From the IMG/VR virus record IMGVR_UViG_3300037486_000467, positions 19,641 through 83,640 of that record: a stretch of DNA of 64,000 bases. One strand, given 5' to 3'. The stretch is from a virus. A program made the translations under genes and the position numbers. The notes beneath the pieces were generated by a model. It saw only the letters and a program-made list of their open reading frames with translations, was not told the origin of the DNA and made no database searches. Below are positions 1 through 24,711 of the stretch, one piece after another. Position 1 is the first letter of the stretch. Each line of letters begins with the position of its first letter.

Positions 1-199
1 TTATTTGTTAACTATTGGCGCAGATATACATCATAACGGAGAAGTTGCATTACGTAATGCAGCAGTTATGAATCATATTGACACGGTAACTCATCTAATA
101 AAAAGGGGCGCAAATGTTGATAAAGCAATAAATAACGCAATATCTGAATCTACTAAAATAATGTTAACAAAAGCAAAAAAACTATGTAGAACAAAATGA
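1..199 (+). CDS. Ankyrin-repeat protein, C-terminal fragment (begins before the window)
   Basis: GADIH..N..ALR.AA..NH...V..LIKRGANV ankyrin consensus; frame runs from the window edge. Confidence 0.75.
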   Translation, partial: YLLTIGADIHHNGEVALRNAAVMNHIDTVTHLIKRGANVDKAINNAISESTKIMLTKAKKLCRTK

Positions 200-627
200 G
201 ATTAGTTCCAGAACATATATACGAAAAGTTTAGCGAAGAGGGCGATCCTATACGCAATATGGGCATCGGGTCAAAATGGGTGCGACTTAAACCCGGAGAA
301 AATATAATAAGACCGAAAAAATTAATGTATATGAATAATGTAGTAGGTCAGAATCATGTTCGCACTGATGGATGTCAATTAGATCTTGATATAAATGATG
401 ATTTTAAATACAGAGTTAATATAGACTATCATAGTATTGTGATGATGGTTAAAAACAAAAAGAATGGAAATCTATACATAGAAGCTATACCTCTTGGTTC
501 AAAAGATCGATGTGAATCATATGTTAAAACTGGTGTAATTAAATATCATTTATGGAAAAAAGAATATGATTGGTTTTATAAAGAAGCTCCAATTTCATTT
601 TGGGAAGATTATTTTGATGTTGTATAA
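196..627 (+). CDS. Tagged variable protein (EKF-DPI-MGIG leader), putative internal head protein
   Basis: Begins MRLVPEHIYEKFSEEGDPIRNMGIG; payload unrecognised, starts with SH3/KOW-like LKPGE. Confidence 0.7.
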   Translation: MRLVPEHIYEKFSEEGDPIRNMGIGSKWVRLKPGENIIRPKKLMYMNNVVGQNHVRTDGCQLDLDINDDFKYRVNIDYHSIVMMVKNKKNGNLYIEAIPLGSKDRCESYVKTGVIKYHLWKKEYDWFYKEAPISFWEDYFDVV

Positions 628-636
628 AGAAGCGCG

Positions 637-1347
637 ATGAGATTAGTTCCAGAACATATATACGAAAAGTTTAGTGAAAATAGCGATCCTATACGCGATA
701 TGGGCATCGGAATATTTAGACAAAGAATATTTGATGATGCTAATACTGCAATTGAATTTATGTTGAATGTTCTGCCCACTATTCTTAAAACTGACGAAAT
801 ACCTGACGATATAATTGTTTCAAATGATAGAATAGATTATCCAGCTTGGAGTTTCAATGATAAATATGCTCAAACTATAGTAAAATATATTGCAAGGTAC
901 GTTAACTCTCACGCTAATAATTTAGAATTCAAAACAAAAGTAGTGTGGGAATTAGTATCAAATTTACACAAAAAGGGATATCCTGGAAACGTAAAACAGA
1001 ATGATAATATAGATGAGAAGTTTGTTGAAGATAGCGATCCTATAGTTGATATGGGAATTGGATTGTACAAAAGTAAAGTAAATTTAAATTCTGAAAAAGA
1101 ATTCTTTCAATATATCTTATGGATAATACCTAAGATACTCGAAACTGATGTTATTCCTAAAGATATCTTAAGTAAGACTAATAATGCTAGGCATAGATCA
1201 TCAATTAGTAGTGGATATTTTAATGAAATTAATCTATACTTGGAAGAGTATGTTTCATATAAAGGCATATCAATGGCGCTAACGAAATGCGAAATGTTTT
1301 GTTGGAATAGCATAGTTGGCACTTTTTTAAAAAAACAGGGATATTAA
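637..1347 (+). CDS. Tagged two-module protein with N-terminal and internal tag
   Basis: MRLVPEHIYEKFSENSDPIRDMGIG and internal IDEKFVEDSDPIVDMGIG; the two payloads resemble each other (LPTILKTDEIPDDII / IPKILETDVIPKDIL). Confidence 0.7.
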   Translation: MRLVPEHIYEKFSENSDPIRDMGIGIFRQRIFDDANTAIEFMLNVLPTILKTDEIPDDIIVSNDRIDYPAWSFNDKYAQTIVKYIARYVNSHANNLEFKTKVVWELVSNLHKKGYPGNVKQNDNIDEKFVEDSDPIVDMGIGLYKSKVNLNSEKEFFQYILWIIPKILETDVIPKDILSKTNNARHRSSISSGYFNEINLYLEEYVSYKGISMALTKCEMFCWNSIVGTFLKKQGY

Positions 1348-1920
1348 ATGAAATTAGTTAAAGAACATATAAACGAAAAGTTTAGCGAAGATAGTGATCC
1401 CATTAGTGATATGGGTATTGGTAAACTTTCTTTAAAAGAAATTAGAAAAATTCTTAGAAATGTTAAGCAAAAATTTAAAGAACTTTTGCCTACTGATCAG
1501 ATAAGAGTTGAAATGTATTCATATTTTGAAGAAGACTTAGACGTTTATGAAGTTACGTTTAAACTTAAATCTGGTTATCATCTTCAAGCAACACTTTTTG
1601 GATCGCAAAGGGGTGTTGATAAATGGCATGAAGTGAATGCTGAAAGATTAAAATCTGCGAATATTCATTCAACACTTCCCAAACGTATTGGCTGGGCGGT
1701 GTATAGATATTATTCTTCTAATAATAAAGCATACTTTGTTGAATTAGAAAACTATGATGAATTAATAAAAGATATGATTAAATGTACGTTTTCTGGAGAC
1801 TTTTTCGATGGTATGATAAATAAGGAAACTGCGTTACGAGATAGATTAGCAAAAAAATTATCTAATGTTCAAATATCTATTGATTCAACAAAAATTTTAA
1901 AACAAGTTTTTTCAGAATGA
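1348..1920 (+). CDS. Tagged variable protein
   Basis: Begins MKLVKEHINEKFSEDSDPISDMGIG. Confidence 0.7.
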   Translation: MKLVKEHINEKFSEDSDPISDMGIGKLSLKEIRKILRNVKQKFKELLPTDQIRVEMYSYFEEDLDVYEVTFKLKSGYHLQATLFGSQRGVDKWHEVNAERLKSANIHSTLPKRIGWAVYRYYSSNNKAYFVELENYDELIKDMIKCTFSGDFFDGMINKETALRDRLAKKLSNVQISIDSTKILKQVFSE

Positions 1921-2684
1921 AAAGAGTTAAAGAATATCTTGTTGAAAAGTTTACTGAAGATTCTGATCCTATTAGCGATATGGGAATTGGAATAGTATCT
2001 AAATTGAATGAAAAATTACCAGAATTAATATTAAAAGCTGACAAACAATATCTTCTTTGGTCTGTAGCAATAAGCAATAATGAAATAACTTTTCATTTTG
2101 ATCATGCAAGACTTAGTACACACAAGGAATTTAGATCTGAAAAAATACTTTTACATACTGTAAAAAAAATTATTAATGATTTACATTTAAATACAGTTTT
2201 TTCAGATATTAAATTAAGCCCTCTTAAAATACAAAATGATGCGTATGGTAATTTTTCACGCGCACCAAAAGTTATTGGAAAAATAAATAAAGAGTTTCAA
2301 AGATATTTAAAAACAGAAGAAGATATTTTTTTAAATAGAAGTGCGTTGAATGATTATATTAATGAAAAATTTATTGAGAATTCTGATCCGATACAAGATA
2401 TGGAAATAGGAAATAGAATTTCATGGGAAACTCTAAAACGTGGAGATGTAATATACAATCTTAATAGAAGTAGCACTGCAATCGTTCAAGATACTTTTAA
2501 AAAAGATGATATTTTATCAATAACATATGTACCCTTTGCGGGTGGTACTATCGAAGAACGCATAGAAATAGCAAAAAATTGGGAAAGATATATTGTTTTT
2601 ATGAATAATACAAAAGAAATGAAAATTTCGGAATGGGAAAAACAATACAAAATTCTTCAACCTTATGAATTTAAAAATAAGTAA
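1917..2684 (+). CDS. Tagged two-module protein
   Basis: MKRVKEYLVEKFTEDSDPISDMGIG and internal YINEKFIENSDPIQDMEIG. Confidence 0.7.
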   Translation: MKRVKEYLVEKFTEDSDPISDMGIGIVSKLNEKLPELILKADKQYLLWSVAISNNEITFHFDHARLSTHKEFRSEKILLHTVKKIINDLHLNTVFSDIKLSPLKIQNDAYGNFSRAPKVIGKINKEFQRYLKTEEDIFLNRSALNDYINEKFIENSDPIQDMEIGNRISWETLKRGDVIYNLNRSSTAIVQDTFKKDDILSITYVPFAGGTIEERIEIAKNWERYIVFMNNTKEMKISEWEKQYKILQPYEFKNK

Positions 2685-2688
2685 TTCA

Positions 2689-3222
2689 ATGAAAATTATT
2701 AATGAAAAATTTACAGATAATGATACTGATGCATTACAAGATATGGGCATCGGAATAACTACTATAATGACTAAATGGTTTGAAGAAGAATTAAAAATAA
2801 AACAACCAAAGCCTGATGATGCATTAGTAATTTGTGCTAGAAACGGAAAACTTGAATTTGTTCAATATTTAGTTCAACATGGAGCAAAGGTAAAAAGAAA
2901 TGATTCTGAATGTCTTCAACAAGCAGCCGCAAATAATCATATAGAAGTAGTAAAATATTTATTAAGTAAAAAATCTAAAGCAGACGGAAATGATAGTTTT
3001 GGAATGAGACAAGCCGCAAGGAATGGTAGTTATGAAATGACTAAACTTTTACTTGATGCAGGAGCAGATCCGAATGCTAAAAAAGGATTTGCGCTAAAAA
3101 TGGCAAAATTATATGGACTCAAAGAAATAGTTAAATTACTTAAACAGTATGGCGCAGTTGAAGATGTTCCGCCTATAGTAAAAGATAGTATTGCTAATGA
3201 TGTACCCAATACAGAATTTTAG
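2689..3222 (+). CDS. Tagged ankyrin-repeat protein
   Basis: Probable start ATG 2689 (MKIINEKFTDNDTDALQDMGIG); about four ankyrin repeats (ARNGKLEFVQYLVQHGA, AANNHIEVVKYLL, ARNGSYEMTKLLLDAGADPN). Confidence 0.8.
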   Translation: MKIINEKFTDNDTDALQDMGIGITTIMTKWFEEELKIKQPKPDDALVICARNGKLEFVQYLVQHGAKVKRNDSECLQQAAANNHIEVVKYLLSKKSKADGNDSFGMRQAARNGSYEMTKLLLDAGADPNAKKGFALKMAKLYGLKEIVKLLKQYGAVEDVPPIVKDSIANDVPNTEF

Positions 3223-3270
3223 TGTAAATGTTATAAAATTAATATGATGAATAAATAAAATAAAAAATAA

Positions 3271-4611
3271 ATGGCATTACATAATCGTTATAATAATGAG
3301 GATATTTTATCAAGAGCAGTTGTTGCTGGAATATTAAACATTCTAAACAACAAAATTACTTATGAACAAGTGTGGAGTAATGAACAAATAGAAACTGTAA
3401 TAATTCCTTGGTATTATAATATGTCCGGTGATGAAAGATTTATGCAAGATTTTTATACACATTATGCTGATTGTCTTCCGCCAAGACCGGCTGATGGAAA
3501 TTTTGATATGATACCAAGAGGAATCATTTCATATACAGGATCAGTTATAGATTCAGCCCGTACAACTTCTCGTTATGTTCAGGGTAATTATCTTAAGGAT
3601 GTTGGAGGGCAATTGCAAACATATCGATCTTTTCTTTATTATATTCCTTTAAATATAAATTTTGATTGTGAAATATGGTTAGATACACAAATAACTGGAT
3701 TAAAAGTTGAACAAGCAATTCGCGAATTATTTTATAAAACAGTTACTTTTTATGTTTATTATAAAGGAATGAGATTGGGGTGTACAGCAGGATTTCCTGA
3801 AGATATTGCATTAGAAAAAAATATTCAATATTCTTTTGAAACCAGCAATAGCACAGTTGTAAAAATTAAATTTTCTATACAAATTGAAGCTTATCAACCT
3901 GTGTTTGATCCTACAACAGAAGTAAACGCCAATGAATACATAAGAGCATTAGGATATAGAATTTTTAATAATAAAGAAAAAAGCGATGGCATTATTACAA
4001 TAACTTCGCCACTTGATTCATCAGAAAATTCTCCGTTAGTTGTGCCTAAAGGATATTCTTTTTTAATAGAATGGGATTATACAAAAGAAAGCGCAATAAT
4101 AAATAAAGTTGACGTTTATTGGATGTTACACGGAGAAGATATTAAACATGTCATAGAACGTTTTGTTCTCAATAATGAATATTATGTATGGAATATTCCA
4201 GAGACTTTCACTAATTTTAAACATCCTACTGTAATATGGAATGAAGTAAATGGTATTTCAATTAATAGAAAGCCTATTATTAAGATAACTCCAAATACTT
4301 CTACAAATGAAATAGATGAAAGTTCATTTATGGTAGTTGATAGTGGATATTTTTTCTCTCCGGAGCCAGACATTTCAGTAGGAGCAATACTAGAAATGAA
4401 AAATATACAAGGAAGAATAGTTTATTCTGGAGATGCATCTCTATACTTTAATTTAAAAGATAATAGAATAGATGAAGATGATCCAGTTGTATTGCCGTAT
4501 GGTCCAATTGTATTTCCGGGAGAAGTAGATTATAAAATAATAGATATACAAATTGCTAATAGTGTTAATAATGATGTATATGATGTTATCCAGAACATAA
4601 AAATTGTCTAA
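3271..4611 (+). CDS. Tail completion/sheath stabiliser (T4 gp15-like N-terminal domain) with C-terminal beta-rich extension
   Basis: IPRG, IPLNINFDCEIW and E.IRELFY pattern recalls gp15-like proteins; structural gene context. Confidence 0.5.
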   Translation: MALHNRYNNEDILSRAVVAGILNILNNKITYEQVWSNEQIETVIIPWYYNMSGDERFMQDFYTHYADCLPPRPADGNFDMIPRGIISYTGSVIDSARTTSRYVQGNYLKDVGGQLQTYRSFLYYIPLNINFDCEIWLDTQITGLKVEQAIRELFYKTVTFYVYYKGMRLGCTAGFPEDIALEKNIQYSFETSNSTVVKIKFSIQIEAYQPVFDPTTEVNANEYIRALGYRIFNNKEKSDGIITITSPLDSSENSPLVVPKGYSFLIEWDYTKESAIINKVDVYWMLHGEDIKHVIERFVLNNEYYVWNIPETFTNFKHPTVIWNEVNGISINRKPIIKITPNTSTNEIDESSFMVVDSGYFFSPEPDISVGAILEMKNIQGRIVYSGDASLYFNLKDNRIDEDDPVVLPYGPIVFPGEVDYKIIDIQIANSVNNDVYDVIQNIKIV

Positions 4612-4677
4612 AAAAAACAAAAACTAATAAATATATAAAATAAAATAAAAGTTATAAAAATTAAATAATACGTGACT

Positions 4678-6933: not shown

Positions 6934-6939
6934 AAATTT

Positions 6940-7578
6940 ATGGAAAACATAAACGAAAATAATATTCAAGAAGAATATAAACCTTTAAATGAAAGTGTTC
7001 AGATAGGAGACGCAGTTAAACTTGATGGGCAGAAGGGATTTGTTATTGGACAAATTGATGGAAAAGTAATTATTCAGGTTCAGGGAAATACAAGTCTTGT
7101 AACTCCTGACAAAGTTAAAGAATATGGAAAAAAACCAGATCTTCTTACTGTTCCTCATATGAAATTTGATGAAGAAACTCAAAAACTTTTATTTGAACAA
7201 TTTGTTAAGTGCGGAGTTTTTATGGGTAATGTTCCTATTAAAATGAGTGATTGTTATGTTAAATACAATCAATGGGAAAAAGCAATGCCTGATCAACAAA
7301 TAAAGGTTCTTATAGAAGGCAATACTGTATTTATGCCAAAATCACAGGTTAGAATATTTGAAGATTTAAATAATTTTGCAAATCCAGATAACTATATTCC
7401 GGGCGTTATTGTTGATGAACCAACTGAAATTGCTCTTGAAAATGTTTTAATTAACGCAATAGATTTTTCAAATGCAATTGGAGATGCAGATTCTGTTCAA
7501 ATTATTCGTAAAGCTCCAGATGGTACGCAAGAAATGCAGACAATGCCAAGAGCAGCGTTAAGAACATTATCAGTATAA
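6940..7578 (+). CDS. Hypothetical head-associated protein with SH3-like N-terminal domain
   Basis: 212-aa ORF; INE/LNE sites precede VQIGDAVKLDGQKG. Confidence 0.5.
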   Translation: MENINENNIQEEYKPLNESVQIGDAVKLDGQKGFVIGQIDGKVIIQVQGNTSLVTPDKVKEYGKKPDLLTVPHMKFDEETQKLLFEQFVKCGVFMGNVPIKMSDCYVKYNQWEKAMPDQQIKVLIEGNTVFMPKSQVRIFEDLNNFANPDNYIPGVIVDEPTEIALENVLINAIDFSNAIGDADSVQIIRKAPDGTQEMQTMPRAALRTLSV

Positions 7579-7581
7579 CAT

Positions 7582-9197: not shown

Positions 9198-9905
9198 ATG
9201 GAGTCTCCTATTATCATATATAATAAATTAAAAGATATAGATAACATTAAAGATGTTGCGTACACACGCTTATTTGAAAATTATCTTGAACTTGAATTAA
9301 AGGGTCCTGATAAATTAATAGAGATTGATTCAACAGATCAAGAATCTGTCTTAAATAAGCTTAAAAGAGGGCGTCCAGTTCATGGAATGTTATATACATT
9401 TATTCATTTAAATGATACAAATTTATTAGAATTACAAAATTACAAAACAGGAAAAAATGTTGAATTTCATGATTTTACTCCTATAGTTTTTTGCATGTCT
9501 TATAATAATGATAAACATTTATTGAAGGGCCTGAATCTTATCATGTTACCACATAAAGAGCGAGTAAAGTTTTTTCAAGCATATTGGGAAATGTACAGAA
9601 AATTTCTGAATAGAGTTGAAGAATTAACTGAATATAATAAATCTGCGATTAATATAGAATATCAAATTGCAGCATTATCAGGAAAGAACTCTGAAATAAT
9701 AAAGATGTTTAATAACAAACAGAAGGCTATGTTTAATTTTGCTTATAGATCTTATGAAATGAAAAATCTTCGTAAATTTAGAATGCTTGAGTATGAAGAA
9801 TGGCAATATGTTCCATTCTTTGATGCGCAAACTTCTTTTAAGAAGATTAATTTAGTTAATATGTATCAAACATATTATGAAAATAGAAATAGTTATTTAA
9901 AATAG
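9198..9905 (+). CDS. gp2: DNA end protector, T4 gp2-like
   Basis: GMLYTF, D.TPIVF, GLNL..LP..R and AYRSY motifs; adjacent to gp4-like gene. Confidence 0.7.
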   Translation: MESPIIIYNKLKDIDNIKDVAYTRLFENYLELELKGPDKLIEIDSTDQESVLNKLKRGRPVHGMLYTFIHLNDTNLLELQNYKTGKNVEFHDFTPIVFCMSYNNDKHLLKGLNLIMLPHKERVKFFQAYWEMYRKFLNRVEELTEYNKSAINIEYQIAALSGKNSEIIKMFNNKQKAMFNFAYRSYEMKNLRKFRMLEYEEWQYVPFFDAQTSFKKINLVNMYQTYYENRNSYLK

Positions 9906-10616
9906 TTCTATATTATTAATACACTTTTTAGCATCTATAAAATCTATAATTTGTGAATTTTCGCAGTCTCGTTTGAATTTGCGAGTAGTTATTTCTACAT
10001 TTATATGTTCTAAATCTTTATAATCGAATTGAGGAAATGGATGTAAATGAGTGTTATATACAGGACCACAATATGCTCGTCCTTTATTAATGTTAAAGTT
10101 AAACCGTCTGCCATCCTTTATATAAACAATAAAACCTATATTTAACTTCTCTAATTCTTTATAGGTTGTATCAGCGGGTATTTTATTATATTCTATTAAT
10201 AAATTTAACGCTTTTTCTTTATGCATTGTGTGTCCAGACTCTTGTCTATTTTTACATATTCTAACTGATTTTTCTTTAAATCTTTGTAAAGAATTTGTTG
10301 TGGCTTCTCTAAATTGTTCAATAGCTTTTTCTGGATTTTTATCAAATAGAAACCATTCATTATATCTTACTGAATTTTTTTGTCTAGGTATTCTCATACT
10401 AGCTAAAGAATCAAAAATCTGATGATCTGTCATTTTATCAGAAATTTCAACTGTACAGCTATATTCTCCTATTTCCCAAGTTCCTCTAGATAAAGTAGCT
10501 AAATTTTTTTTTAAATTTTCAGTGTTTCCTACTTTATACATACCTATTCTTGCATCTGAAGGCGTGGTATAAAGATAAGCAAATCTCTGTTTTTCTGTTT
10601 TGTTATCTGTTTCCAT
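9897..10616 (-). CDS. T5orf172/GIY-YIG-like nuclease domain protein, possible free-standing homing endonuclease
   Basis: FAYLY...MYKVGNT...NEWF motif; antisense insertion between gp2 and portal. Confidence 0.6.
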   Translation of the reverse strand: METDNKTEKQRFAYLYTTPSDARIGMYKVGNTENLKKNLATLSRGTWEIGEYSCTVEISDKMTDHQIFDSLASMRIPRQKNSVRYNEWFLFDKNPEKAIEQFREATTNSLQRFKEKSVRICKNRQESGHTMHKEKALNLLIEYNKIPADTTYKELEKLNIGFIVYIKDGRRFNFNINKGRAYCGPVYNTHLHPFPQFDYKDLEHINVEITTRKFKRDCENSQIIDFIDAKKCINNIELF

Positions 10617-10776: not shown

Positions 10777-12570
10777 ATGGCCGGCTTCGGACTAAGAAAC
10801 CTCGATAAAAGATCAGCATCTTTTTTAGATAATATACAACGTAACATACGTTATCTCAGCATCCTTGGGATGAAATGGGATGAAAAAGTAATAAAACAAT
10901 CTCGTGCCATAGGTATTAGTGAAATGACTGAAGACTCTATGTATAGTCTTTATGGTCAACATCAACTATATTCAGGCGCAGATATTAATCAAAAAGAATT
11001 TATTGCATTCTTTGATAAAGAATATCCTACAAGAAGAGATTTCTTGAGAAGATTTGCAATGAATGGAGAAATTGAACATGTTATAGAAGTTATAGCAGAT
11101 GAAACTATCATTCAAGATGATGCTAATTTCTTTGCTTATCCCAATACTAAGAAATTAAAATCTGTTCTTAAAGCTGAAAAAGCAAAAGAAATTGTAGATG
11201 ATCTTAATGAATCATTCAAAAAGGTTTATTATGCCTTTGGCTTTAATAGTGGCCATGATGGATGGCATTATGCTAAAAAATTCTTAATTGATGGTTTCCT
11301 TTCTTTTGAAATTATTTATGACGGTGAAGGTTCAGATCCAGCTAAACATATATTAGGATTTAAAGAACTTGATCCAGTTACTCTTGAGCCTGAAATGAGA
11401 AAAGACGAAGAAGGAAATGAGTATAGAATGTGGATACAATTTAGGGGAGATTCAGAAAAACAAAGAGAATTAGTTGACGGAAATATAATTTATATCTCTT
11501 GGGCAAGAGGAAATTTTATATCTCGTCTATCATATGTTGAAAGACTTGTTAGAGCATTCAACATGCTTAGAACAATGGAGAATTCACGTATTATTTGGAA
11601 TGTTATGAATTCTCAACAACGTATGAAAATAGTTGTTCCTATTGGAACTCAATCAGAGGTTAAAGCAAGAACTCGTCTTTCAGAACTTCGAGCTATGTAT
11701 AAAGAAGATGTTACAATTGATTATCAAAGTGGAGAAGTTACAATAAATGGTACGCCAAATTTCTCTTTCGCTAAACAGTATATTTTTCCTGTAAAAGATG
11801 GCCAACAAGTTGATGTAAATTCATTTGCTCCAGCAGGTTGGGATTTGTCAGGAACAATGGCTCTCGATTATTTTTGGAAAAGATTTATTATTGAAACAAA
11901 AGTTCCTAAAGATAGATTTACAACAACAGGAGAAGAAGGCGGTCAGGGCAGCAATTGGTCTAGTGGTGGTGAAGGTATTGCTAGAGAAGAAATTAGGTTT
12001 GCTTATTTTATTAATCGTATTCGTTCTATTCTTCAAGAAATATTGTTAAAGCCTACATGGATACAATTTTGTTTAAAACATCCTGAATTTGCACAAGATA
12101 AAGCATTACGAGGCGCTATAGGTCTTGAATTTGTTGAAGAAAACTTATTTACAGAAGCCAAAAAACGTGATATAGCAGAAAAGGGTGCTGCAATAGTTAC
12201 TACACTTATGGGCATAAATCAACCCGAAGTTGATAATGAAGGTGTAGTAAATAATGACGGAATGTACTTTGATCCTAAATTCTTAGTTGAAAAGTATATG
12301 GATTATACTGATGAAGATCTTAAACTTAATGAAAAATATAAGAGAGAAAGAAGAGAACAATTAACTCGTATTGCAGATAGCATCAAGCGTATCAATGCAA
12401 TTAAAGGCACAGGAGAAGAAGGAGAAGCTGGCGCAGGTGGTGACATGACTGGCTTAGGAGGAATGGAAATGGGCGGTGGCGAAATAGCCGGAGGAGCTCC
12501 AACAGAACCTGGCGCAGAAGGCGAAACCGGTGAAGAAGAAGCGGGCGGCACAACTGAATTAGGAGTTTAA
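10777..12570 (+). CDS. gp20: Portal protein, T4 gp20-like
   Basis: EIEHVIEVIADE, FLIDG, ELDP, SYVERL.R.FN.LR.ME.S.IIW, KVP.DRF, I.REEIRF motifs. Confidence 0.93.
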   Translation: MAGFGLRNLDKRSASFLDNIQRNIRYLSILGMKWDEKVIKQSRAIGISEMTEDSMYSLYGQHQLYSGADINQKEFIAFFDKEYPTRRDFLRRFAMNGEIEHVIEVIADETIIQDDANFFAYPNTKKLKSVLKAEKAKEIVDDLNESFKKVYYAFGFNSGHDGWHYAKKFLIDGFLSFEIIYDGEGSDPAKHILGFKELDPVTLEPEMRKDEEGNEYRMWIQFRGDSEKQRELVDGNIIYISWARGNFISRLSYVERLVRAFNMLRTMENSRIIWNVMNSQQRMKIVVPIGTQSEVKARTRLSELRAMYKEDVTIDYQSGEVTINGTPNFSFAKQYIFPVKDGQQVDVNSFAPAGWDLSGTMALDYFWKRFIIETKVPKDRFTTTGEEGGQGSNWSSGGEGIAREEIRFAYFINRIRSILQEILLKPTWIQFCLKHPEFAQDKALRGAIGLEFVEENLFTEAKKRDIAEKGAAIVTTLMGINQPEVDNEGVVNNDGMYFDPKFLVEKYMDYTDEDLKLNEKYKRERREQLTRIADSIKRINAIKGTGEEGEAGAGGDMTGLGGMEMGGGEIAGGAPTEPGAEGETGEEEAGGTTELGV

Positions 12571-13247: not shown

Positions 13248-13318
13248 CATTAGATTAACAAATATATAATATCAAATTATGTAATTTATATTATATTGTT
13301 ATATAGTTCTTTAAAATA

Positions 13319-13565
13319 TTGAGAAATGCTCTACGGAGCTAGTTATAGAGTAGGTATGCAACACCGCGGTTCGACCCCGCGCACCTCCACAAAAGTTTGT
13401 AGCGAAATCTCGGTCTCTTTTCAAAAAGCCGAACTTCAATAGGGGGTGACCTGGCTTTGACTGCATATTGAGGGTGTTAATGAACGTCTCAACACGTCAA
13501 ATAAACGACGCAAACATTTATGAAATGCAAATGGCTGCTTAAGAAGCACTCATTTACAGGAAACT
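13319..13565 (+). ncRNA. ssrA: Circularly permuted (two-piece) tmRNA
   Basis: T-arm CGCGG-TTCGACC-CCGCG (13365-13381) and acceptor 3' strand CACCTCC-A (13382-13389) lie upstream of the 5' strand GGGGGTG..TGG..TTGAC (13442-13461). Pairing gives the G3.U70 Ala determinant; P2 helix TATGCA/TGCATA; tag ORF 13507-13542 DANIYEMQMAA*. Confidence 0.92.
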
Positions 13566-13566
13566 G

Positions 13567-13595
13567 GCCGGTCGCCTAAGGTACCGGCTTTTTTT
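13567..13595 (+). terminator. Intrinsic terminator after tmRNA
   Basis: GCCGGT...ACCGGC stem followed by T7. Confidence 0.8.
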
Positions 13596-13618
13596 ATCTT
13601 TCGTTATTAGCAACGGGG

Positions 13619-13632
13619 ATATATAAATAAAA
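13619..13632 (+). promoter_or_regulatory. T4-type late promoter TATAAATA
   Basis: TATAAATA at 13622-13629, just upstream of the ORF at 13645; related ATATATAAAATAAA at about 4631, 15125, 22109 and 26630, and on the minus strand at about 41730 and 51006. Confidence 0.55.
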
Positions 13633-13644
13633 TCATACAATTAA

Positions 13645-15111
13645 ATGCAAGCCAAATTAGTGCATGAAGATTTAAATGAAAAATTTACTGATGAATCTGA
13701 TCCTATAAAAGATTTAGGAATAGGAGAAGGCACTCTTCATAATTTAAAACGGGGTGATATAATAAAAGTAAAATATAATTGTAGTATTGATAAAAATAAA
13801 AGATTGGTATTTTCATTTAAGTTGGCTACATATTTTAAACCTACAATGGATTGGATATATAAAGGCTTATATTTAATAGTAGATAAAGTAGAATATAAAG
13901 ATGATAAAGTTTTTATTATAGGTTTTAACGGTAGTAATAATTTAGTTGTAGCTAAAGATCGAAAACGTGTACTTTTTATTGAATATCCTGATTTTCAACC
14001 GCCTATTCCTAAAGGAGATTTTTGGGTTTTTGAAAAAAATATTGACAAAATGTTAGAATTTGTTAAAGATAATAAAATAAAAGAATCTTTAAATGAAAAA
14101 TTCCAAGATATCTCGGATCCCATTAAAGATATGGGAATTGGATATCCCCAATGTCTTGTAGGAACAAAAATATACATACCATTTGGTTATGAATTAAGTG
14201 TATATAATAAACTATATAAAAGATCTAACTCTGAAAATGAAAATGGAAAGATTTGGACAATTAACTCTGCTATTAGAGAAGGCGAATTTATTAAAGTTAC
14301 GTTAAATAATTTTACTGTATTTTTAACCGAAAAACAACTTAAGTTATTTTCAAAAAAATATCAAAATTTAATAAAGGAAGATTTAAATGAAAAATTTACA
14401 GAAGAATCTGATCCAATCCACGATTTAGGCATAGGGTATTTTGAAATTGTTAAAAAACCTCGTAATGTATTTTATTTCATTGAAAGAGGCCCAAATTATG
14501 TTGAAGGTGGAAAGCCAACTACATACGTGTATTCTATGGATAAAGGAAACGTTTACAGAACACACCCTAATTTATATGCTCACCAAGAATTAAGATCAAA
14601 TTCTAACGCCTTTAATAAAGGAAATACTGATAAAATGGCTATTCCAAATGATTTTAATAAAGCATATGCATTCATAATGGATCATTATATTAAGAAGAGA
14701 AAAAGAGCTAGATTAAGAGAATCTTTAAATGAAAAATTTACAGAAACATCTGATGCAATTGTAGATATGGGTATAGGATTTAATCCTCAAAAAACCAAAA
14801 CTAAATCATTTAAGATACTATTATTCATTAATTCAAGAGGAGAAGATGGCGCATCTTTATTAGAAATACAGCATTTTATTTATGTAGAATTAAACGGAGG
14901 TTCTGAACAACAATTTTGGGAAACTAAAGAAGACAGGTATTGGCCCGGTAAGAAACGAATAACTCGAGGATATTGGTGTACAAATTTATTAGGATCACAT
15001 AGATGGCCGGGATTACTTCATAAATATTGCAAAAAGAATGAAAAGGGTAAATGGGTTATTAAAAGGTGGCCTAAGTTTGAAGAAAATCTTTATGATTTCG
15101 ACAAAAAATAA
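13645..15111 (+). CDS. Tagged four-module protein (putative polyprotein)
   Basis: Four copies of E(D/S)LNEKF..(S)D(P/A)I.D(M/L)GIG, each followed by a different 70-120-aa payload. Confidence 0.75.
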   Translation: MQAKLVHEDLNEKFTDESDPIKDLGIGEGTLHNLKRGDIIKVKYNCSIDKNKRLVFSFKLATYFKPTMDWIYKGLYLIVDKVEYKDDKVFIIGFNGSNNLVVAKDRKRVLFIEYPDFQPPIPKGDFWVFEKNIDKMLEFVKDNKIKESLNEKFQDISDPIKDMGIGYPQCLVGTKIYIPFGYELSVYNKLYKRSNSENENGKIWTINSAIREGEFIKVTLNNFTVFLTEKQLKLFSKKYQNLIKEDLNEKFTEESDPIHDLGIGYFEIVKKPRNVFYFIERGPNYVEGGKPTTYVYSMDKGNVYRTHPNLYAHQELRSNSNAFNKGNTDKMAIPNDFNKAYAFIMDHYIKKRKRARLRESLNEKFTETSDAIVDMGIGFNPQKTKTKSFKILLFINSRGEDGASLLEIQHFIYVELNGGSEQQFWETKEDRYWPGKKRITRGYWCTNLLGSHRWPGLLHKYCKKNEKGKWVIKRWPKFEENLYDFDKK

Positions 15112-17015: not shown

Positions 17016-17075
17016 CAGCAATTTAATTTTATTAAAAATAATTAACACCAAACCGTATTATATTGGATATATACA

Positions 17076-17103: not shown

Positions 17104-17143
17104 AATTAAATAAAATAAAAACTTAAACTAAAATAAAAAAATT

Positions 17144-17434: not shown

Positions 17435-17465
17435 TCATTTCATTTTTCTTAAACTAATTAATTTT

Positions 17466-18092: not shown

Positions 18093-18094
18093 AG

Positions 18095-18577: not shown

Positions 18578-19332
18578 ATAATATAAAATGGATAAAGGGT
18601 TCTCGTGGTTTGCCGGAATGTGTGTATAAGATAAAAATTCCAAGTGTATCTACGATTTTAAGTGAAATGATTCCCGATCCTGAATATGATGAATTTGTTG
18701 CAGCAGTAGGAAAAGAAAGAGCAGATAAAATAATGACTTCTGCTGGTAATAGGGGTTCATCTATGCATACTTTTATAGAAACGTTTATAGCTAAATACTC
18801 ATCTAGTAAAGATGTTTCAGAAGCATTGAAATACACTCAAGAAGAAAGTCCTAAATTATTAGAAATAGAAAATATACCAAAAGATAAAATTGAAGAAGGC
18901 AGAAGTCTTTTTTATAAATTTTATTATTCAGATTATTCTAATAGATATTTAGATACTCTAGCTATAGAATTAGGAGTATATTCTCCCTCTTTATTTTATC
19001 GAGGTAAATTAGATATTTTATATAAAGATAAACTATTTGGACTTTCATTAACTGATTTTAAATCTTCTAATGGTAAAATTAAAAATGGAAGTACTAAAGA
19101 ATTAAAATATCGATATCAATTAGGAGGATATGCAAACTGTATTGATGAAATGTATAAAGAGCAAAATGTTATTATTAATAGAGCTTCAATATTATGCGTA
19201 GATAAAAATAATGATATTTTGCAAGAAATAGAGTGTGTTGGAAAAGAATTACAAGAATACAAAGAAAAGTTTAAAGTGTTAGTAATTGAGTATCATAAAA
19301 AAAATAATACAGAATATTTATTAAGTAATTGA
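18556..19332 (+). CDS. PD-(D/E)xK exonuclease (phage exonuclease family)
   Basis: PSVSTIL, RGSSMH, E..GKLD, DFKSS and YQL..YA motifs. Confidence 0.85.
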   Translation: MDFQFDINNIKWIKGSRGLPECVYKIKIPSVSTILSEMIPDPEYDEFVAAVGKERADKIMTSAGNRGSSMHTFIETFIAKYSSSKDVSEALKYTQEESPKLLEIENIPKDKIEEGRSLFYKFYYSDYSNRYLDTLAIELGVYSPSLFYRGKLDILYKDKLFGLSLTDFKSSNGKIKNGSTKELKYRYQLGGYANCIDEMYKEQNVIINRASILCVDKNNDILQEIECVGKELQEYKEKFKVLVIEYHKKNNTEYLLSN

Positions 19333-19387
19333 TTTTTTAAAACTATTTTTTGTAAATGCCATAAAATATAAAATAATACATAAAAAT

Positions 19388-20011
19388 ATGAAAAAAGAAG
19401 ATGAAAAATCTGCTAGTGTTCTTACTGTAGTAAAAGATAATACAGAAAATACCAAAGAAGTAAATAAGCCTACGCCCGAAGAAGCTGCGCAGTTTAAAGA
19501 AGAATTTGAAAAATCAGCCGAAGCATTTAAAACAACTAAATGGGAAATTAGCGAAAAAGGAAAATTTGGAGCTAACGATGTAGGAATGTTTATAATGGAT
19601 TTTATGAAAAAATTTGCATTTTGGACAAAAACTGGCTGGATGGGAATGCTAAAGATGACCGAAGAATTAAATAAAGCTATGAATTTAGTTGATGAAAATA
19701 CGGGTCTTCAATTAGAATATCAAGCACTTGAATTTTTAGCATATATGTTGTCAAATCCTGGAAATACAGGATTAGATGCAGCTATTGAATTTGAACAAAT
19801 AGCAGATAAATATTCTAAAATTGGAATAGTTATTGGAACAAAACTTGAAGAGGCGCGAAAACAATTAAAAGATCTTCAATATCTTCAAGAAAAATGGGCT
19901 GCTGCTGAACAGGGATATTATCTTGCAGAACTTGAGCCTAAAAAAGAAGAAAAATTAGAAGGAAACGCAGTGGAAATTGATATATCTAAAAAAGAAGAAA
20001 AACCCGAATAA
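19388..20011 (+). CDS. Hypothetical protein
   Basis: 207-aa ORF with upstream AAAACT-N16-ATAAAA and downstream terminator. Confidence 0.6.
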   Translation: MKKEDEKSASVLTVVKDNTENTKEVNKPTPEEAAQFKEEFEKSAEAFKTTKWEISEKGKFGANDVGMFIMDFMKKFAFWTKTGWMGMLKMTEELNKAMNLVDENTGLQLEYQALEFLAYMLSNPGNTGLDAAIEFEQIADKYSKIGIVIGTKLEEARKQLKDLQYLQEKWAAAEQGYYLAELEPKKEEKLEGNAVEIDISKKEEKPE

Positions 20012-20031
20012 CCTTTTATATATTTCATTTT

Positions 20032-20058
20032 AAGAGGCCCAAAACTTGGGCCTCTTTT
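20032..20058 (+). terminator. Intrinsic terminator overlapping the next promoter
   Basis: AAGAGGCCCA-aaact-TGGGCCTCTT hairpin with T tail. Confidence 0.7.
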
Positions 20059-20110
20059 GATAATATAAATATAAATATCTAGAGATATATAAAAACAAAA
20101 GACACTAATT

Positions 20111-20455
20111 ATGGCACTTACACCTCAACAATTCTTTGAACGTTATGCTAAATGGCTATTACTTGTATTTATAGCTTTATTTTTATTTAAATCTGTACAA
20201 AGTTGTAATAGAAACATGAAATTAACAATAGATTCAAAAAAATATACACATGAAATCGATTCTTTAAAGACTTTAAACCAAAATTCTTTAGATAGTATCA
20301 AAAAACTTAATTTTGAATTAGAAATTGCATCAGAAAAAGCTAAATCTGCAAATGATAGAGCGGTTGCCGTTCAAAGTGCAGTTGAAAAGATGCGAACAAA
20401 TACAACTATTACTGTTAAAGGTGCAGAACAAATTAAAGACACAACAAAAAGATAA
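20111..20455 (+). CDS. Membrane-anchored coiled-coil protein, spanin-like or lipoprotein-like
   Basis: N-terminal TM helix ending VQSC, then coiled coil. Confidence 0.45.
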   Translation: MALTPQQFFERYAKWLLLVFIALFLFKSVQSCNRNMKLTIDSKKYTHEIDSLKTLNQNSLDSIKKLNFELEIASEKAKSANDRAVAVQSAVEKMRTNTTITVKGAEQIKDTTKR

Positions 20456-20775
20456 TGAATTATAATAAAGAAAATATTTGTTCTTTTTGTGATGGAACCA
20501 AGGGTTGGACATTTATTCATGATAATGATCCTTCTAGAGGTCCTGTTTTTCATCCGTGTTATTGTGAAGATGGAACGCGTGTAGGACAATTAATTAGTGA
20601 TCTCGCAATTCAAAAATTACAGAATGAACAAATATATGATGATTATAATCAACTTCGACAATGGGTGGAAAAAACTTCAACATGCAAAACGTGTAAAGGA
20701 GATCAGTATAGTATTCCAGGCGGAACTCTTTGCTCTGAATGCAGATTGCCCGGATTACAACCATGGGGAGGATAA
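20455..20775 (+). CDS. Cys-rich zinc-finger-like protein
   Basis: CSFC..G, CYC, CKTC.G and CSEC motifs. Confidence 0.55.
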   Translation: MNYNKENICSFCDGTKGWTFIHDNDPSRGPVFHPCYCEDGTRVGQLISDLAIQKLQNEQIYDDYNQLRQWVEKTSTCKTCKGDQYSIPGGTLCSECRLPGLQPWGG

Positions 20776-20795
20776 ATAAATAAAATAAATAAAGA

Positions 20796-22010
20796 ATGAA
20801 ATTAGGAAATCTTAAAATTACGAATAAAGGTCTTTATTGGGGATTGATAATCACCTTTTTCTTGATATACATTTGCGTAGGCTTTGTATCAACATTGCAT
20901 GCTATTACTTTTTTTCAAATGGCAAATACTATGGGACTGGCAGTTCTATTAGCTCTTGCATTTGAAGTTGGTCAAAGCTCAGTATTGTTTTCAATATTAA
21001 TGACAAAAAACAAAGAAAAATTTCTGCCATGGTTTTTAATGGTTCTATTAACAGGATTGCAAATAACCGGTAACGTTTTTTCTTCATTTAAACATATAAT
21101 GACATCAGGAAGTTTAGATTGGCAATATTTTCAAAAATCTATTCTTTTTGGAGTTCAGGCTTCAAATCCTGAAATGTATCAAGTTATAATATCTTGGTTG
21201 CAAGGCGCTCTTTTACCCGTTGTTGCTCTTGGACTTACAGCATTGGTTGCACAAAATATTAATATATTAATTCCGCATGAAGAGGAGGAAAAAAAGCTTA
21301 AAGAAATTATACCCGAAATAGATGAAACGCCTGAAGATTCTCCCGAAACGCCGATGGTTGAAAAAGTAGTTTTTAAATCTCCAGGAATACCTAGAGTTGA
21401 AAAAGGAGGTGAAACAATAAATTTTACACCGGTTGAATCAACTATTGCCTCTGCACTTGGAATAGATGCTGAAGAAGAAATGAAAAATTACAGAGTTGCT
21501 GATTTAGCTGATAAAGAACTAATGAATAATGAACAAGATGATGAATTTGTCGATTCTTATTTGGTTTCACTTCAAGAAGAATCTCCGCAAGAAATAAATG
21601 TATTACCAGAAGAACCTAAAATAGAAGAAAAAAAAACTGATGTAAGAGGAAAAAGGCCTCCACTTAGTATGCGTGAAATTATACAGCAAGTTGCAGATAG
21701 GGGCGGAGCAGGCGATTTAACAAAATTATTAGCTGGAAATATACAGCCAGAGAAAGAAGAACAAGAATTAAATGAAGTAGTTGAATTAAAAAAAGAAAAG
21801 GAATCTTTGCTAAAAGAGGACGTAAAGGTTCCGCAAGAAAACACAAAGTCTCTAAAGAAATTAACAATAAATGACGAAAAACAAAAAAATACTTCTCAAC
21901 TTCAAAAAATTTACGCACAGATAGCAAAAGAACATTTAGATGATGATATAGAAGGCGTAGAAATAATAGATGGCGAAGCTATTCCTAAATCAAACGTAAA
22001 AAAAAAGTAA
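20796..22010 (+). CDS. Four-TM membrane protein with long acidic tail
   Basis: Four hydrophobic helices in the first 160 aa, then E/P/K-rich disordered region. Confidence 0.65.
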   Translation: MKLGNLKITNKGLYWGLIITFFLIYICVGFVSTLHAITFFQMANTMGLAVLLALAFEVGQSSVLFSILMTKNKEKFLPWFLMVLLTGLQITGNVFSSFKHIMTSGSLDWQYFQKSILFGVQASNPEMYQVIISWLQGALLPVVALGLTALVAQNINILIPHEEEEKKLKEIIPEIDETPEDSPETPMVEKVVFKSPGIPRVEKGGETINFTPVESTIASALGIDAEEEMKNYRVADLADKELMNNEQDDEFVDSYLVSLQEESPQEINVLPEEPKIEEKKTDVRGKRPPLSMREIIQQVADRGGAGDLTKLLAGNIQPEKEEQELNEVVELKKEKESLLKEDVKVPQENTKSLKKLTINDEKQKNTSQLQKIYAQIAKEHLDDDIEGVEIIDGEAIPKSNVKKK

Positions 22011-22079
22011 AAATGAAATTAGAAAAATCTGGTATCCATATTAACCCCGGAGAACATCAAAATTTTGATAGAATTTAAG

Positions 22080-22102
22080 AAGGAGCGTAAGCTCCTTTTT
22101 TA
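22080..22102 (+). terminator. Intrinsic terminator
   Basis: AAGGAGC-gtaa-GCTCCTT followed by T-run. Confidence 0.75.
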
Positions 22103-22128
22103 TTGAAATATATAAAATAAAATAATAG

Positions 22129-23025
22129 TTGAAATTAGTCAGAGAACATATTAATGAAGAACAAATAGACGAAATGTTAATATTTTTAATAAGTTCGCCT
22201 AGTTTAAATGAATCATTAAATGAATCTATAAATTTAGATAAAATAAAAAATATTGTAAATAAAATAAAAGATAAAAGCAAAGCTTTTTATACTATAATAC
22301 AAAAATTCAATGATACAAAAGATGAAAAAATAAAAAACTATTTTGCAATTGTTTTAACAATTTTAGTTTTAAGTTTACCTTCAATAAATATACAGAATCC
22401 AAATATACAAGAAATATCTAATGAAATTTCAAAAAGAAAAACAATTACGCCTTTAGATGTAAATAAAATAATAAATCTACCCATATTTAGTTTAGAGCTT
22501 TCAAAACAAAAATTAATAAAAATAGACAATCCTATAAATATTGAAAAAGCACATATTTCAGAAGATACTAAGCAATTAATAAAAGAACACGAAAAATTAA
22601 AATTAAAAGCATATTCAATTGGCGATGGAATGATTACAATAGGTTGGGGGCATGCTGAACCATTAAATTCTTCTACATATAAAATAGGACATACTATATC
22701 TAAAAAAGAAGCTGATATATTATTTCAAAAGGATTTAAATAAAATAGAAAACGGAGTTAAGCGTATATTTTATCAATGGGAACAAGAAGGAAAGAATATT
22801 AAAATGACTCAAGGAATGTTTGATTCTATGGTGTCTTTAGGATATAATATAGGAATAAGTGGATTAAGAAAAACTGAATTCATACAACATGTTAAAAATA
22901 ATGATATTCTTGCTGCTGCCGAAAAAATAAAAACAACGAAAATAAATTCTAAATTTCCAGGATTAAAAGACAGAAGACAAAAAGAACATGAATTATTCAT
23001 AAAAGATTTAAATTTTAATGAATAA
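22129..23025 (+). CDS. GH24 lysozyme with N-terminal head-protein-type leader
   Basis: IKEHEKLKLKAY..GDG..TIGWGH, FDSMVSL.YN.G and GL..RR..E..LF motifs; TTG start (M)KLVREHINEE. Confidence 0.88.
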   Translation: MKLVREHINEEQIDEMLIFLISSPSLNESLNESINLDKIKNIVNKIKDKSKAFYTIIQKFNDTKDEKIKNYFAIVLTILVLSLPSINIQNPNIQEISNEISKRKTITPLDVNKIINLPIFSLELSKQKLIKIDNPINIEKAHISEDTKQLIKEHEKLKLKAYSIGDGMITIGWGHAEPLNSSTYKIGHTISKKEADILFQKDLNKIENGVKRIFYQWEQEGKNIKMTQGMFDSMVSLGYNIGISGLRKTEFIQHVKNNDILAAAEKIKTTKINSKFPGLKDRRQKEHELFIKDLNFNE

Positions 23026-23048
23026 ATAAATAAAATAATTATGTAAAT

Positions 23049-24065
23049 ATGGCAGATTTATTTAATAATACATCCAATGATTATATTAACCCTACTTTAA
23101 ATCCTTGCCCTGGCGCCGGTGATGGTGGTGCATCTGGTACATTTGAATTTTTACCCGGTCAAGAAGTAGGAGTAATATCTGGAAGTGATATTGTAACATC
23201 AATGGGATTAGGAGATATATCTGTACCTGTAGATGGTTGGACTAACCAATCAAAAATATTACAATCAGGAGAAGTAATATTCATTCCTGGATTAACAAAA
23301 GGCATTTCATATAGATATCAAAGTTTTCCGTTTGATGGTTCTGTATTATATACTAATACAAATCACTCATTCTATTTAGCAGTAGATATGTCAATTAATT
23401 ATTATAGAAATTTTAGATACTATGAAGATGCAATACATGCAGAAGCTAATTTAACAAATGGAATAACTATTGAAAATGCTCTACAAATTGCGTTAGATGC
23501 TAAATTAATAAATGTCACTACTACATATGATGCAAGTGGTTTAACATTTATAGGAACTGCCTTAGGATATTCTTATGATATAACTGCATTAGACGTTAGT
23601 CTTTTTCAATATAATTCATTAACAAGAGAAACTTTGGCAGAAGATGCATCAGTTGCAATTCCGGCATTTAAATATCCTAATGGAGCGATGTTGGGATATG
23701 TGTTAAAAGCAACGTATCCTTCAACCGTTGAAGATTATGAATCGTATATCGAAATAAATCACGTACCTGATAGTTTAGTTTATTATGAAGTAAGCACTGG
23801 AGGATGTTATTCAAGATATGAAAAATTAGTTGACGTTGGATTAAATAGTGGTTTGCTTTGTGTAGGTAATACAACTGTAATGAGTGCGGCGGATTATCTT
23901 ACATATGTTGAAGAAAATAGTTTATGGGAAAAAGTAGGAGTTATTAGAATTTGGTTAACTGCGACTGATCCCGATAATTCATTAATTGAAAATTTAATTA
24001 CTGGATTTTATATTTATAATCCACATACATTTCCTGTACAAATATCATATATGATAATATTATAA
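23049..24065 (+). CDS. Putative virion structural protein (beta-rich)
   Basis: 338 aa, S/T/G/Y-rich, repeated DxS motifs. Confidence 0.5.
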   Translation: MADLFNNTSNDYINPTLNPCPGAGDGGASGTFEFLPGQEVGVISGSDIVTSMGLGDISVPVDGWTNQSKILQSGEVIFIPGLTKGISYRYQSFPFDGSVLYTNTNHSFYLAVDMSINYYRNFRYYEDAIHAEANLTNGITIENALQIALDAKLINVTTTYDASGLTFIGTALGYSYDITALDVSLFQYNSLTRETLAEDASVAIPAFKYPNGAMLGYVLKATYPSTVEDYESYIEINHVPDSLVYYEVSTGGCYSRYEKLVDVGLNSGLLCVGNTTVMSAADYLTYVEENSLWEKVGVIRIWLTATDPDNSLIENLITGFYIYNPHTFPVQISYMIIL

Positions 24066-24066
24066 A

Positions 24067-24711
24067 ATGAAATTAGTAAAGGAACACTTAAATCAATATT
24101 ATTTAAAATTCACAAATACAGGTGATCCTGTACATGATATGGGTATAGGAATTGAATCTCAAATTAAAGATTGGTTAGCTCAATATAATATTCATCAATA
24201 TGCTTTAACTAAGAAATTTTCAATAAATGTATATACTTCTATAGATTTTTCGAATAAATCTATAAAGCAATTTCCTGATTATATAAAATTTAATCATATA
24301 ATAGGAGGATTTCATTGTGAACACAGTGATCTAATTTCATTAAAAGGCGGTCCTTATAGTGTTACTGGATCTTTTCTCGTTCGATATAATAATTTAAAAA
24401 ATTTAATAAATGGGCCAGTTTCGGTTAAAGGTATATATAGTATAAGTTATAATGGAACAGAATCATTAGAAGGTTTAGCTAAATTTATAGAAGGCGCGGT
24501 ATATCTTAGTCATAATAATTTAAAATCATTAGAAGGCGTGCCAAAAATAATTAAAGGCGAATTTGCAATACACGATAATCCAATAAAAACATTAAAATAT
24601 TTTCCTGAAGAAGTAGAGGGAGATGTAACTTTTTCGCCTTCCGATATTATAACAAAAGAGAAAATATTAAATATATGCAAAGTTGGCGGAGAAATAAAAG
24701 AATATAATTAA
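24067..24711 (+). CDS. Tagged LRR-like repeat protein
   Basis: MKLVKEHLNQYYLKFTNTGDPVHDMGIG followed by ~22-aa L.SL.G.P..V.G.F....N repeats. Confidence 0.75.
   Translation: MKLVKEHLNQYYLKFTNTGDPVHDMGIGIESQIKDWLAQYNIHQYALTKKFSINVYTSIDFSNKSIKQFPDYIKFNHIIGGFHCEHSDLISLKGGPYSVTGSFLVRYNNLKNLINGPVSVKGIYSISYNGTESLEGLAKFIEGAVYLSHNNLKSLEGVPKIIKGEFAIHDNPIKTLKYFPEEVEGDVTFSPSDIITKEKILNICKVGGEIKEYN

Follow-up and report, generated by a model that had tools for sequence, protein, structure and literature searches.

A 25-residue peptide heads a large set of mostly unrelated protein modules in an uncultured phage: a candidate signal for head packaging and protease processing

What is one short peptide doing in front of so many phage protein modules that have little else in common? 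The question is raised by IMG/VR virus record IMGVR_UViG_3300037486_000467, a single record of 83,640 bases. We analyzed its bases 19641 to 83640, a stretch of 64,000 nucleotides referred to here as the window; a further 19.6 kb of contig lies upstream of it. The element in question is a tag of 25 residues that precedes one module after another, and a first-pass annotation made from the window sequence alone had proposed that it marks proteins that are packaged in the head and injected with the DNA. Our leading interpretation, which we hold with about even confidence and which draws on sequence comparisons, is that the tagged proteins are head-packaged cargo proteins and polyproteins that would be cut by the prohead protease. 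The 12 tag copies in seven open reading frames (ORFs) that the annotation had reported were all found at the positions it gave, including a degenerate copy at 24067. The tag genes of the window, with a motif that precedes one of them, are as follows.

2-199, + strand: C-terminal end of an ankyrin-repeat tag protein whose start and tag lie upstream, at contig position 19435 (Ank_2 E=3.2e-6, at 19435-19836 of the contig)
196-627, + strand: one-tag protein of 143 aa; tag at 196-270; payload with one paralogue upstream
637-1347, + strand: protein of 236 aa with two modules, tagged at 637-711 and 988-1062; each payload falls in a 12-member alpha/beta family
1348-1920, + strand: one-tag protein of 190 aa; tag at 1348-1422
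1917-2684, + strand: protein of 255 aa with two modules, tagged at 1917-1991 and 2337-2411
2665-3222, + strand: ankyrin-payload tag protein; tag at 2680-2754 with 1 inserted residue (Ank_2 E=1.7e-19, at 2665-3219)
13622-13629, + strand: TATAAATA motif, its first base 23 nt upstream of the four-module gene
13645-15111, + strand: four-module tag protein of 488 aa; tags at 13651-13725, 14068-14142, 14362-14436, and 14704-14778
24067-24711, + strand: tag followed by a solenoid resembling leucine-rich repeats (LRR), 214 aa; degenerate tag at 24067-24150 with a 3-residue insertion

The tag copies are not a product of chance, because a six-frame translation of the contig contained the core D[ML]GIG 49 times, compared with a mean of 0.04 and a maximum of 1 in 100 shuffles, and the full tag pattern occurred 56 times, compared with 0 in the shuffles. 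A profile built from the tag copies (iE<1e-6) located 58 copies on the whole contig, 46 upstream of the window and 12 within it. All 58 are on the + strand, with a typical spacing of about 320 to 520 nt, and the 19.6 kb upstream of the window consists almost wholly of the same tag array. The profile also found 88 copies spread over the entire genome of a relative (G001), a complete phage of 405,016 bp with direct terminal repeats whose portal is 85% identical to that of the window, and 24, 24, 9, and 2 copies on four other fragments. On the contig alone, the system is about five times larger than the annotation had described. Among 1.84 billion metagenome cluster representatives (50% identity clusters), 1608 matched the tag profile at E<=0.001, and a second protein library yielded 764 tagged proteins, all of them metagenomic and named only "hypothetical" or "ankyrin repeat protein." The tag was present in 54 loci among IMG/VR-type contigs. 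The annotation had considered that the motif might occur mainly in cellular proteins; compared with the 1608 metagenome clusters, only 3 tag loci were detected among 185,579 species genomes, all on short contigs of metagenome-assembled genomes; the motif is in essence a viral one. In the contig ORFs that were scanned, the tag is covered by no Pfam or PHROG family, the sole PHROG trace being a weak match to phrog_24110 (E=2.3e-4, residues 7-41 of the first protein). The tag profile had 0 matches among all PDB sequences at E<=10, and a full-text literature search for the core letters DMGIG or DLGIG returned nothing relevant; nor is a tag of this kind mentioned in the passages taken from PMC7824862. 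The tag motif is an undescribed, widespread, and virus-specific element.

The anatomy of the tag was determined from 56 ungapped contig copies and from a census of 519 internal tags of metagenome proteins. Residues E10, F12, D17, and I24 were invariant in the 56 copies, and K11, S16, P18, I19, D21, and G25 were conserved in at least 90% of them. Positions 8 to 10 read (I/L/V)-x-E in every copy, with N9 in 37 of the 56; the internal metagenome tags had I, L, or V at position 8 in 496 cases, N9 in 368, E10 in 517, and F12 in 99%. The second half of the tag has the consensus KFTxDSDPIxD(M/L)GIG, of which K11-F12 and DSDPIxD(M/L)GIG form the best conserved part of the whole peptide. The 25 copies that begin at a start codon carry an additional MK(L/I)V(K/R)E(H/Y). 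In the 31 internal copies positions 1 to 5 were variable and Lys rich, and only the (I/L/V)-N-E triplet and, partly, E6 were kept. The interpretation given in the annotation is supported in part, and its claim that the first half of the tag directs packaging and cleavage needs correcting: the (I/L/V)-x-E triplet is universal, but the first half does not behave as one unit, because the internal copies keep only the triplet and a partial E6, and MKLVxEH is found only at protein N termini. Codons at the conserved residues were free to vary (5 for Ser, 4 for Pro, and 3 to 4 for Gly), and it is therefore the peptide, rather than the underlying DNA, that is under selection. One codon preference was observed separately: Lys11 was encoded by AAG in 43 of 53 copies, with Lys at positions 2 and 5 preferring AAA (19/27 and 18/21, respectively), and the bias at Lys11 may avoid a run of A after GAA.

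The tag is acidic, and both of the AlphaFold2 models that we made from paralogue alignments separated it clearly from its payload by the predicted local distance difference test (pLDDT), with values of 48 to 59 for the tag. In the model of 637-987, the tag had a pLDDT of 55 to 59 and no regular structure, and the alpha/beta payload exceeded 90; in the model of 24067-24708, the corresponding values were about 50 for the tag and 97 to 98 for the solenoid payload. As modelled, the tag is a flexible linear motif ahead of independently folded domains, because low tag confidence was paired with confident payloads in both cases.

Modules cut at the tags ranged from 95 to 218 aa, with a median near 120. 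The annotation had described the payloads as unrelated, and they are in fact largely unrelated in sequence, forming 30 clusters by BLASTP (E<=1e-3): one of 12 members, one of 8 (ankyrin), eight of 2 to 3, and 20 singletons. Pfam bore out the ankyrin payload that the annotation had named at 2665-3219 (Ank_2, listed above). The LRR-like payload that it had seen was modelled as the confident solenoid just described, and its best PDB matches were all LRR domains, albeit weak ones (best E=9.9e-3). By Pfam, ankyrin repeats were present in 8 of the 29 tagged contig ORFs that were scanned and in 40 of 109 multi-tag metagenome proteins; the other matches among these 109 were to DUF6267, to a 2H-phosphoesterase-type domain, and to two further domains, each in one case only, and no payload shows an anti-defense role. 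The 12-member payload family had no Foldseek match in PDB at E<=0.001, and a wide VIA-align search gave a best Z of 4.5, which left the family without an assigned fold. A comparison of 1348-1917 with the ESM Atlas gave no usable feature match, all structure rows being below a template modelling (TM) score of 0.5. Payloads were mildly basic, with a median isoelectric point of 8.7 versus 6.1 for 48 other proteins; the T4 internal proteins are described as highly basic (PMC8442874). In a set of 190 multi-tag metagenome proteins, each carried 2 to 10 tags, and a tag stood at residue 6 or earlier in 173. The multi-tag proteins look like polyproteins, since the tag recurs inside them.

Could a phage protease read the (I/L/V)-N-E triplet? 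The contig is rated 21% complete and represents about one fifth of a phage of ~400 kb with a T4-type head and probably a Bacteroidota host, to which window proteins with a type IX secretion sorting domain and BACON domains point (Pfam and PHROG scans). Besides a T4-type portal, the window encodes a gp55-like late sigma factor, a gp4-like head-closure protein, sheath and tube proteins, and a T4-type large terminase (TerL). The evidence on protease and capsid comes from the relative G001, because the contig holds neither gene. The features that matter here are the following.

10777-12570, + strand: T4 gp20-type portal (Portal_T4 E=5.6e-51)
G001, locus L058, 10659-13004, - strand: protease-scaffold gene
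22129-23025, + strand: lysozyme-domain protein with a TTG start (Phage_lysozyme E=5.5e-22)
28838-30745, + strand: protein with a type IX sorting domain (Por_Secre_tail, Pfam)
58373-60853, - strand: a further ORF of the group of BACON-domain or type IX sorting-type proteins

The relative encodes a Gp23 capsid protein (E=1.2e-38) and, at the N terminus of a 781-aa protein, a Peptidase_S77 domain of the T4 gp21 family (E=2.4e-15); the protease gene is present in a second relative (G002) as well. We read the long remainder of the 781-aa protein as a probable scaffold. The protease domain is fused to a segment of ~580 aa that is rich in [ILV]NE, and the whole protein contains 10 such triplets versus 1.27 expected, a number that was reached in 0 of 1000 shuffles. 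Five of the ten sites lie at residues 133 to 200, at the end of the protease domain, and when [ILV]xE was split by its middle residue, only N was enriched. The capsid protein of the same phage contains 3 [ILV]NE triplets versus 0.21 expected. Two of them are N terminal (MKQLNE and HALNE-AAMGG), in columns that show no or almost no variation among 53 capsid proteins; the capsid protein has >2000 relatives at E<=1e-20. It aligns to T4 gp23 from its residue 89, which corresponds to residue 26 of mature gp23*, and HALNE precedes the conserved core, as expected of a maturation site. T4 gp21 cuts after the Glu of (L/I)-x-E. It is reported to trim short peptides from the N termini of the internal proteins, Alt, gp24, and gp23 and to degrade the scaffold (PMC9958956, PMC7411985, PMC5694885). 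We read the (I/L/V)-N-E of the tag as a putative prohead-protease site, backed by these independent sequence statistics. Across the ten sites of the scaffold protein the residue after the Glu (P1') varied, and the protease therefore leaves K11-F12 and the second half of the tag unexplained. Among the 46 untagged contig ORFs, the density of [ILV]NE in the first 25 residues was 4.9 times that in the remaining sequence (7 versus 21 motifs, binomial p=0.0015). Three small untagged ORFs with N-terminal [ILV]NE, at 6940-7578 (+), 43037-43402 (-), and 48599-49270 (-), begin with sequences of the type MENINEN...PLNES, MKKLVSENLNE, and MKINEE, and they are candidates for protease-processed head proteins. 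A complex prediction for the G001 capsid protein (53 rows) with a 40-residue tag segment (56 rows) scored 0.00 in two runs without controls and was not used either way.

The position of some tag genes also links them to the head. All three portal-holding records (G000, G001, and G003) have tag ORFs that follow the portal, on its strand, at a distance of 0.9 to 2.1 kb. The four-module gene of the window is 1.1 kb downstream of the portal, and its fourth module is 50% identical to an ORF at the same place in G001. In the latter genome, two tag genes also precede the protease-scaffold and capsid genes, at a distance of 0.7 to 1.9 kb, and a single gene on the opposite strand intervenes. Most tags of this genome are in arrays elsewhere, far from the capsid gene.

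The phage encodes a library of ~58 modules of ~120 aa (ankyrin, LRR-like, and others), each headed by a flexible bipartite peptide. In the mechanism that we favor, the first part, (I/L/V)-N-E, extended at protein N termini to MKLVxEHINE, would be the recognition site of the gp21-family prohead protease, which would trim off the leading ten residues and, within the prohead, split the multi-module proteins into their individual modules. The second part, KFTxDSDPIxD(M/L)GIG, would stay behind as the new N terminus of each module. This retained peptide would recruit the module to the head or hold it there, perhaps by docking on the scaffold or on the inward side of the HK97-fold capsid protein, much as encapsulin targeting peptides do through their L-G-I core. 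On ejection, the modules would be carried out along with the DNA and would take effect in the host. What we infer is cleavage, packaging, docking, and ejection, together with any function of the payloads.

The closest known counterpart of the tag system is the set of T-even internal proteins, which are described as diverse defense proteins with only a capsid-targeting sequence (CTS) in common (PMC3012670). The T4 CTS is MKTYQEFIAE, and the internal proteins are reported to be cut once, next to it (PMC8442874). The annotation had matched MKLVKEHINE to this peptide; with the CTS sequence taken from that source, the two are of equal length and agree at M1, K2, E6, I8, and E10. The CTS-like decapeptide was present in the 25 of 56 tags that start proteins and not in internal tags. 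Like IPI-III and Alt of T4, the tagged proteins are unrelated proteins that share a short N-terminal peptide of 10 residues with an I-x-E end, and both phages have T4-type head genes (gp20 here and the gp21-family protease and gp23 in the relative). However, T4 has four such proteins, compared with 58 to 88 modules per genome here. It has no counterpart of the 15-residue second half that follows the presumed cut and that is the better conserved half here. Furthermore, the tag in our phage recurs inside proteins, in internal copies that lack MKxx.

Giant phages offer a second comparison. SPN3US and phiKZ have large heads with many internal proteins, as the tagged phage would. In SPN3US, family B comprises 20 head paralogues, and gp53 and gp54 are reported to share identical N-terminal 15-mers with protease motifs, "reminiscent of" the T4 CTSs; the prohead protease of giant phages is described as cutting after x-x-E motifs (PMC5694885). 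These phages differ from the tag system in their motif (A/S/G-x-E), in propeptides that are often >100 residues long, in paralogous payloads, and in having no tag repeated inside proteins. PF12699, the Pfam family of the giant-phage inner-head paralogues, had no match in 78 contig ORFs or in 109 tagged metagenome proteins. The tag system is set apart from both the T4 internal proteins and the giant-phage head paralogues by its scale, by the retained conserved peptide, and by its tag-delimited multi-module proteins. A third likeness is to the polyvalent proteins, which are proteins of several domains, found in phages and conjugative elements, that are believed to accompany the DNA on delivery and to be split into individual effectors (Iyer et al. 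2017, as cited in PMC7824862). In contrast to the tagged proteins, which mostly carry binding repeats or no assigned fold and have one repeated delimiting peptide, polyvalent proteins have many enzymatic domains and their own peptidases. Pfam detected no embedded peptidase in the 29 tagged contig ORFs or the 109 tagged metagenome proteins.

The second half of the tag has a possible parallel outside phage heads. Encapsulin cargo peptides such as GGDLGIRK and GSLGIGSLR (consensus DGSLGIGSLKG) are reported to bind the inner face of an HK97-fold shell (PMC7925596, PMC10960027). Like the tag, they are short and flexible, are attached to unrelated proteins, and have a hydrophobic-Gly-hydrophobic core (LGI versus D(M/L)GIG). 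Such an anchor in a short flexible peptide is present in the tag, with 49 exact D[ML]GIG matches and a flexible peptide in both models. The systems differ in that encapsulin peptides are C terminal and their cargo genes form operons with the shell gene, whereas our tags are N terminal to every module and most of their genes are far from the capsid gene, and in that the shell here would be a gp23-type phage capsid with its own scaffold. By this analogy, a more specific form of the packaging interpretation can be framed, which we consider distinctly unlikely: a tailed phage would use an encapsulin-style loading peptide, the retained tag half docking modules on the gp23-type shell or scaffold, with polyproteins diced at (I/L/V)-N-E and 60 to 90 small binding proteins delivered with the DNA.

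Several observations weigh against packaging in the head. A cargo of 58 to 88 different modules would be unprecedented and far above that of any studied head, and neither the capsid gene nor the protease gene is on the 21%-complete contig. The tag is most strongly conserved after the proposed cut, unlike the T4 CTS. The identified payloads are mostly binding repeats, with a 2H enzyme domain in 1 of 109 proteins, which would suit cytoplasmic adaptors equally well. The encapsulin likeness is only a lead, because it is five residues long and those peptides are C terminal. The enrichment of [ILV]NE in untagged ORFs comes from only 7 motifs in 6 of the 46 ORFs. The lysozyme ORF begins LKLVREHINE (translation table 11, TTG), which matches the first tag half alone, and two LNE triplets and a hydrophobic stretch come next; it was dropped as an independent CTS carrier, its N terminus not being kept in the G001 homologue (only ESLNESL is common). 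On expression, the TATAAATA motif, the T4 late-promoter consensus, occurred <=70 nt upstream of only 2 of 98 N-terminal tag genes at all loci and consequently says nothing general on tag-gene timing, and most neighboring tag genes on the contig overlap by 4 nt at their stop and start codons in tight arrays. Finally, the nearest portals in GenBank were those of Lak megaphages and of an uncultured 462-kb phage, at ~39 to 41% identity, with no cultured relatives, and a seven-tag protein had no match among 50,697 GenBank phage records.

The alternative that survives best, which is possible but in our judgment unlikely, is a cytoplasmic adaptor library in which nothing is packaged: the tag would dock on a common hub (a host or phage protease, chaperone, or machine), and the modules would bring host targets to it. 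Ankyrin and F-box families of large eukaryotic viruses work as hub adaptors in this way. Most payloads that could be identified are repeats of the protein-binding kind (ankyrin in 40 of 109, and LRR-like), the tag has the flexibility and acidity that a linear motif would be expected to show, and most tag genes stand in long arrays with no late-promoter-like motif (2 of 98 have one). Additionally, the tag and LRR gene at 24067 is directly upstream of two genes whose products are candidates for the hub.

24726-28320, + strand: DUF2201 metallopeptidase/VWA protein (with a long GQ/GK dipeptide repeat at ~25250-25460), then a MoxR-type AAA ATPase

Both of these proteins have an [ILV]NE in their first 25 residues. 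However, an adaptor library does not account for the enrichment of the same triplet in the scaffold and capsid proteins, for the likeness of the N-terminal tag to the T4 CTS, or for tag genes beside the portal in three of three records, and the hub itself is only a candidate.

Display on the capsid surface is very unlikely. In this case the tag would anchor variable binding modules on the head exterior or another virion surface for decoration or adhesion, a role comparable to that of the T4 capsid decoration protein Hoc. Binding-type payloads, the likeness of D(M/L)GIG to peptides that bind an HK97-fold shell, and the location of some tag genes near head genes all fit such a role, but an invariant protease-type site would be pointless outside the head. 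Up to 10 tags per protein would face one site per capsomer, and the encapsulin site is reported to be on the inner face (PMC7925596, PMC10960027). Highly improbable, too, is a signal for exporting the modules from the infected bacterium or for delivering them into a eukaryotic cell that harbors the host. Ankyrin and LRR payloads are typical of effectors aimed at eukaryotes, and the best fold matches of the LRR model, weak as they are, were secreted bacterial LRR effectors; however, the tag has no hydrophobic or basic character of the Sec or Tat type, the type IX signal of Bacteroidota is C terminal and is found here on a different protein (28838-30745), internal repeats make little sense for export, and Pfam and PHROG scans showed no secretion apparatus nearby. 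The chance that the peptide is neutral, a conserved junction for recombinational shuffling or translation start, is close to negligible: the 4-nt gene overlaps make fusion and fission of modules easy, and an MKLV start is found on the unrelated lysozyme gene in this phage only, but synonymous codons vary freely at invariant residues, the motif is kept across 1608 clusters, and conservation is highest in the internal copies, where no translation begins (E10 in 517/519, F12 in 99%).

If the head-packaging interpretation is correct, a clade of ~400-kb phages that is abundant in metagenomes fills its heads with a far greater variety of proteins than is seen in any phage studied so far, and the multi-module proteins are a natural example of polyproteins processed by a prohead protease. 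The tag would then provide a sequence rule for candidate ejected proteins in uncultured huge phages. It would also be a candidate portable two-part tag for placing foreign proteins in large capsids and, in the encapsulin-style form of the interpretation, would link the head cargo of phages mechanistically with encapsulin loading. Should the hub-adaptor alternative be true instead, the system would be a phage counterpart of the ankyrin and F-box multigene families of large eukaryotic viruses.

Other features of the window were recorded along with the tag genes. The stretch from the portal region to the four-tag gene includes a phage-encoded permuted transfer-messenger RNA (tmRNA), and an ORF immediately before the portal, on the opposite strand, may be a mobile endonuclease-type insertion. 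The ARAGORN span of the tmRNA is 13299-13633, with DANIYEMQMAA as the predicted tag peptide.

9897-10616, - strand: T5orf172-domain ORF
13338-13542, + strand: permuted tmRNA (RF04321, 55.1 bits, gathering score 47)
32087-41704, - strand: one ORF of 3205 aa, without a Pfam family; only one weak PHROG match
54525-57983, - strand: fusion protein of 1152 aa with two FkbM-type methyltransferase stretches and TRM5/TYW2 methyltransferase, radical SAM, and SPASM domains
60825-63317, - strand: collagen-repeat tail-fiber-like protein with a Peptidase_S74 chaperone domain

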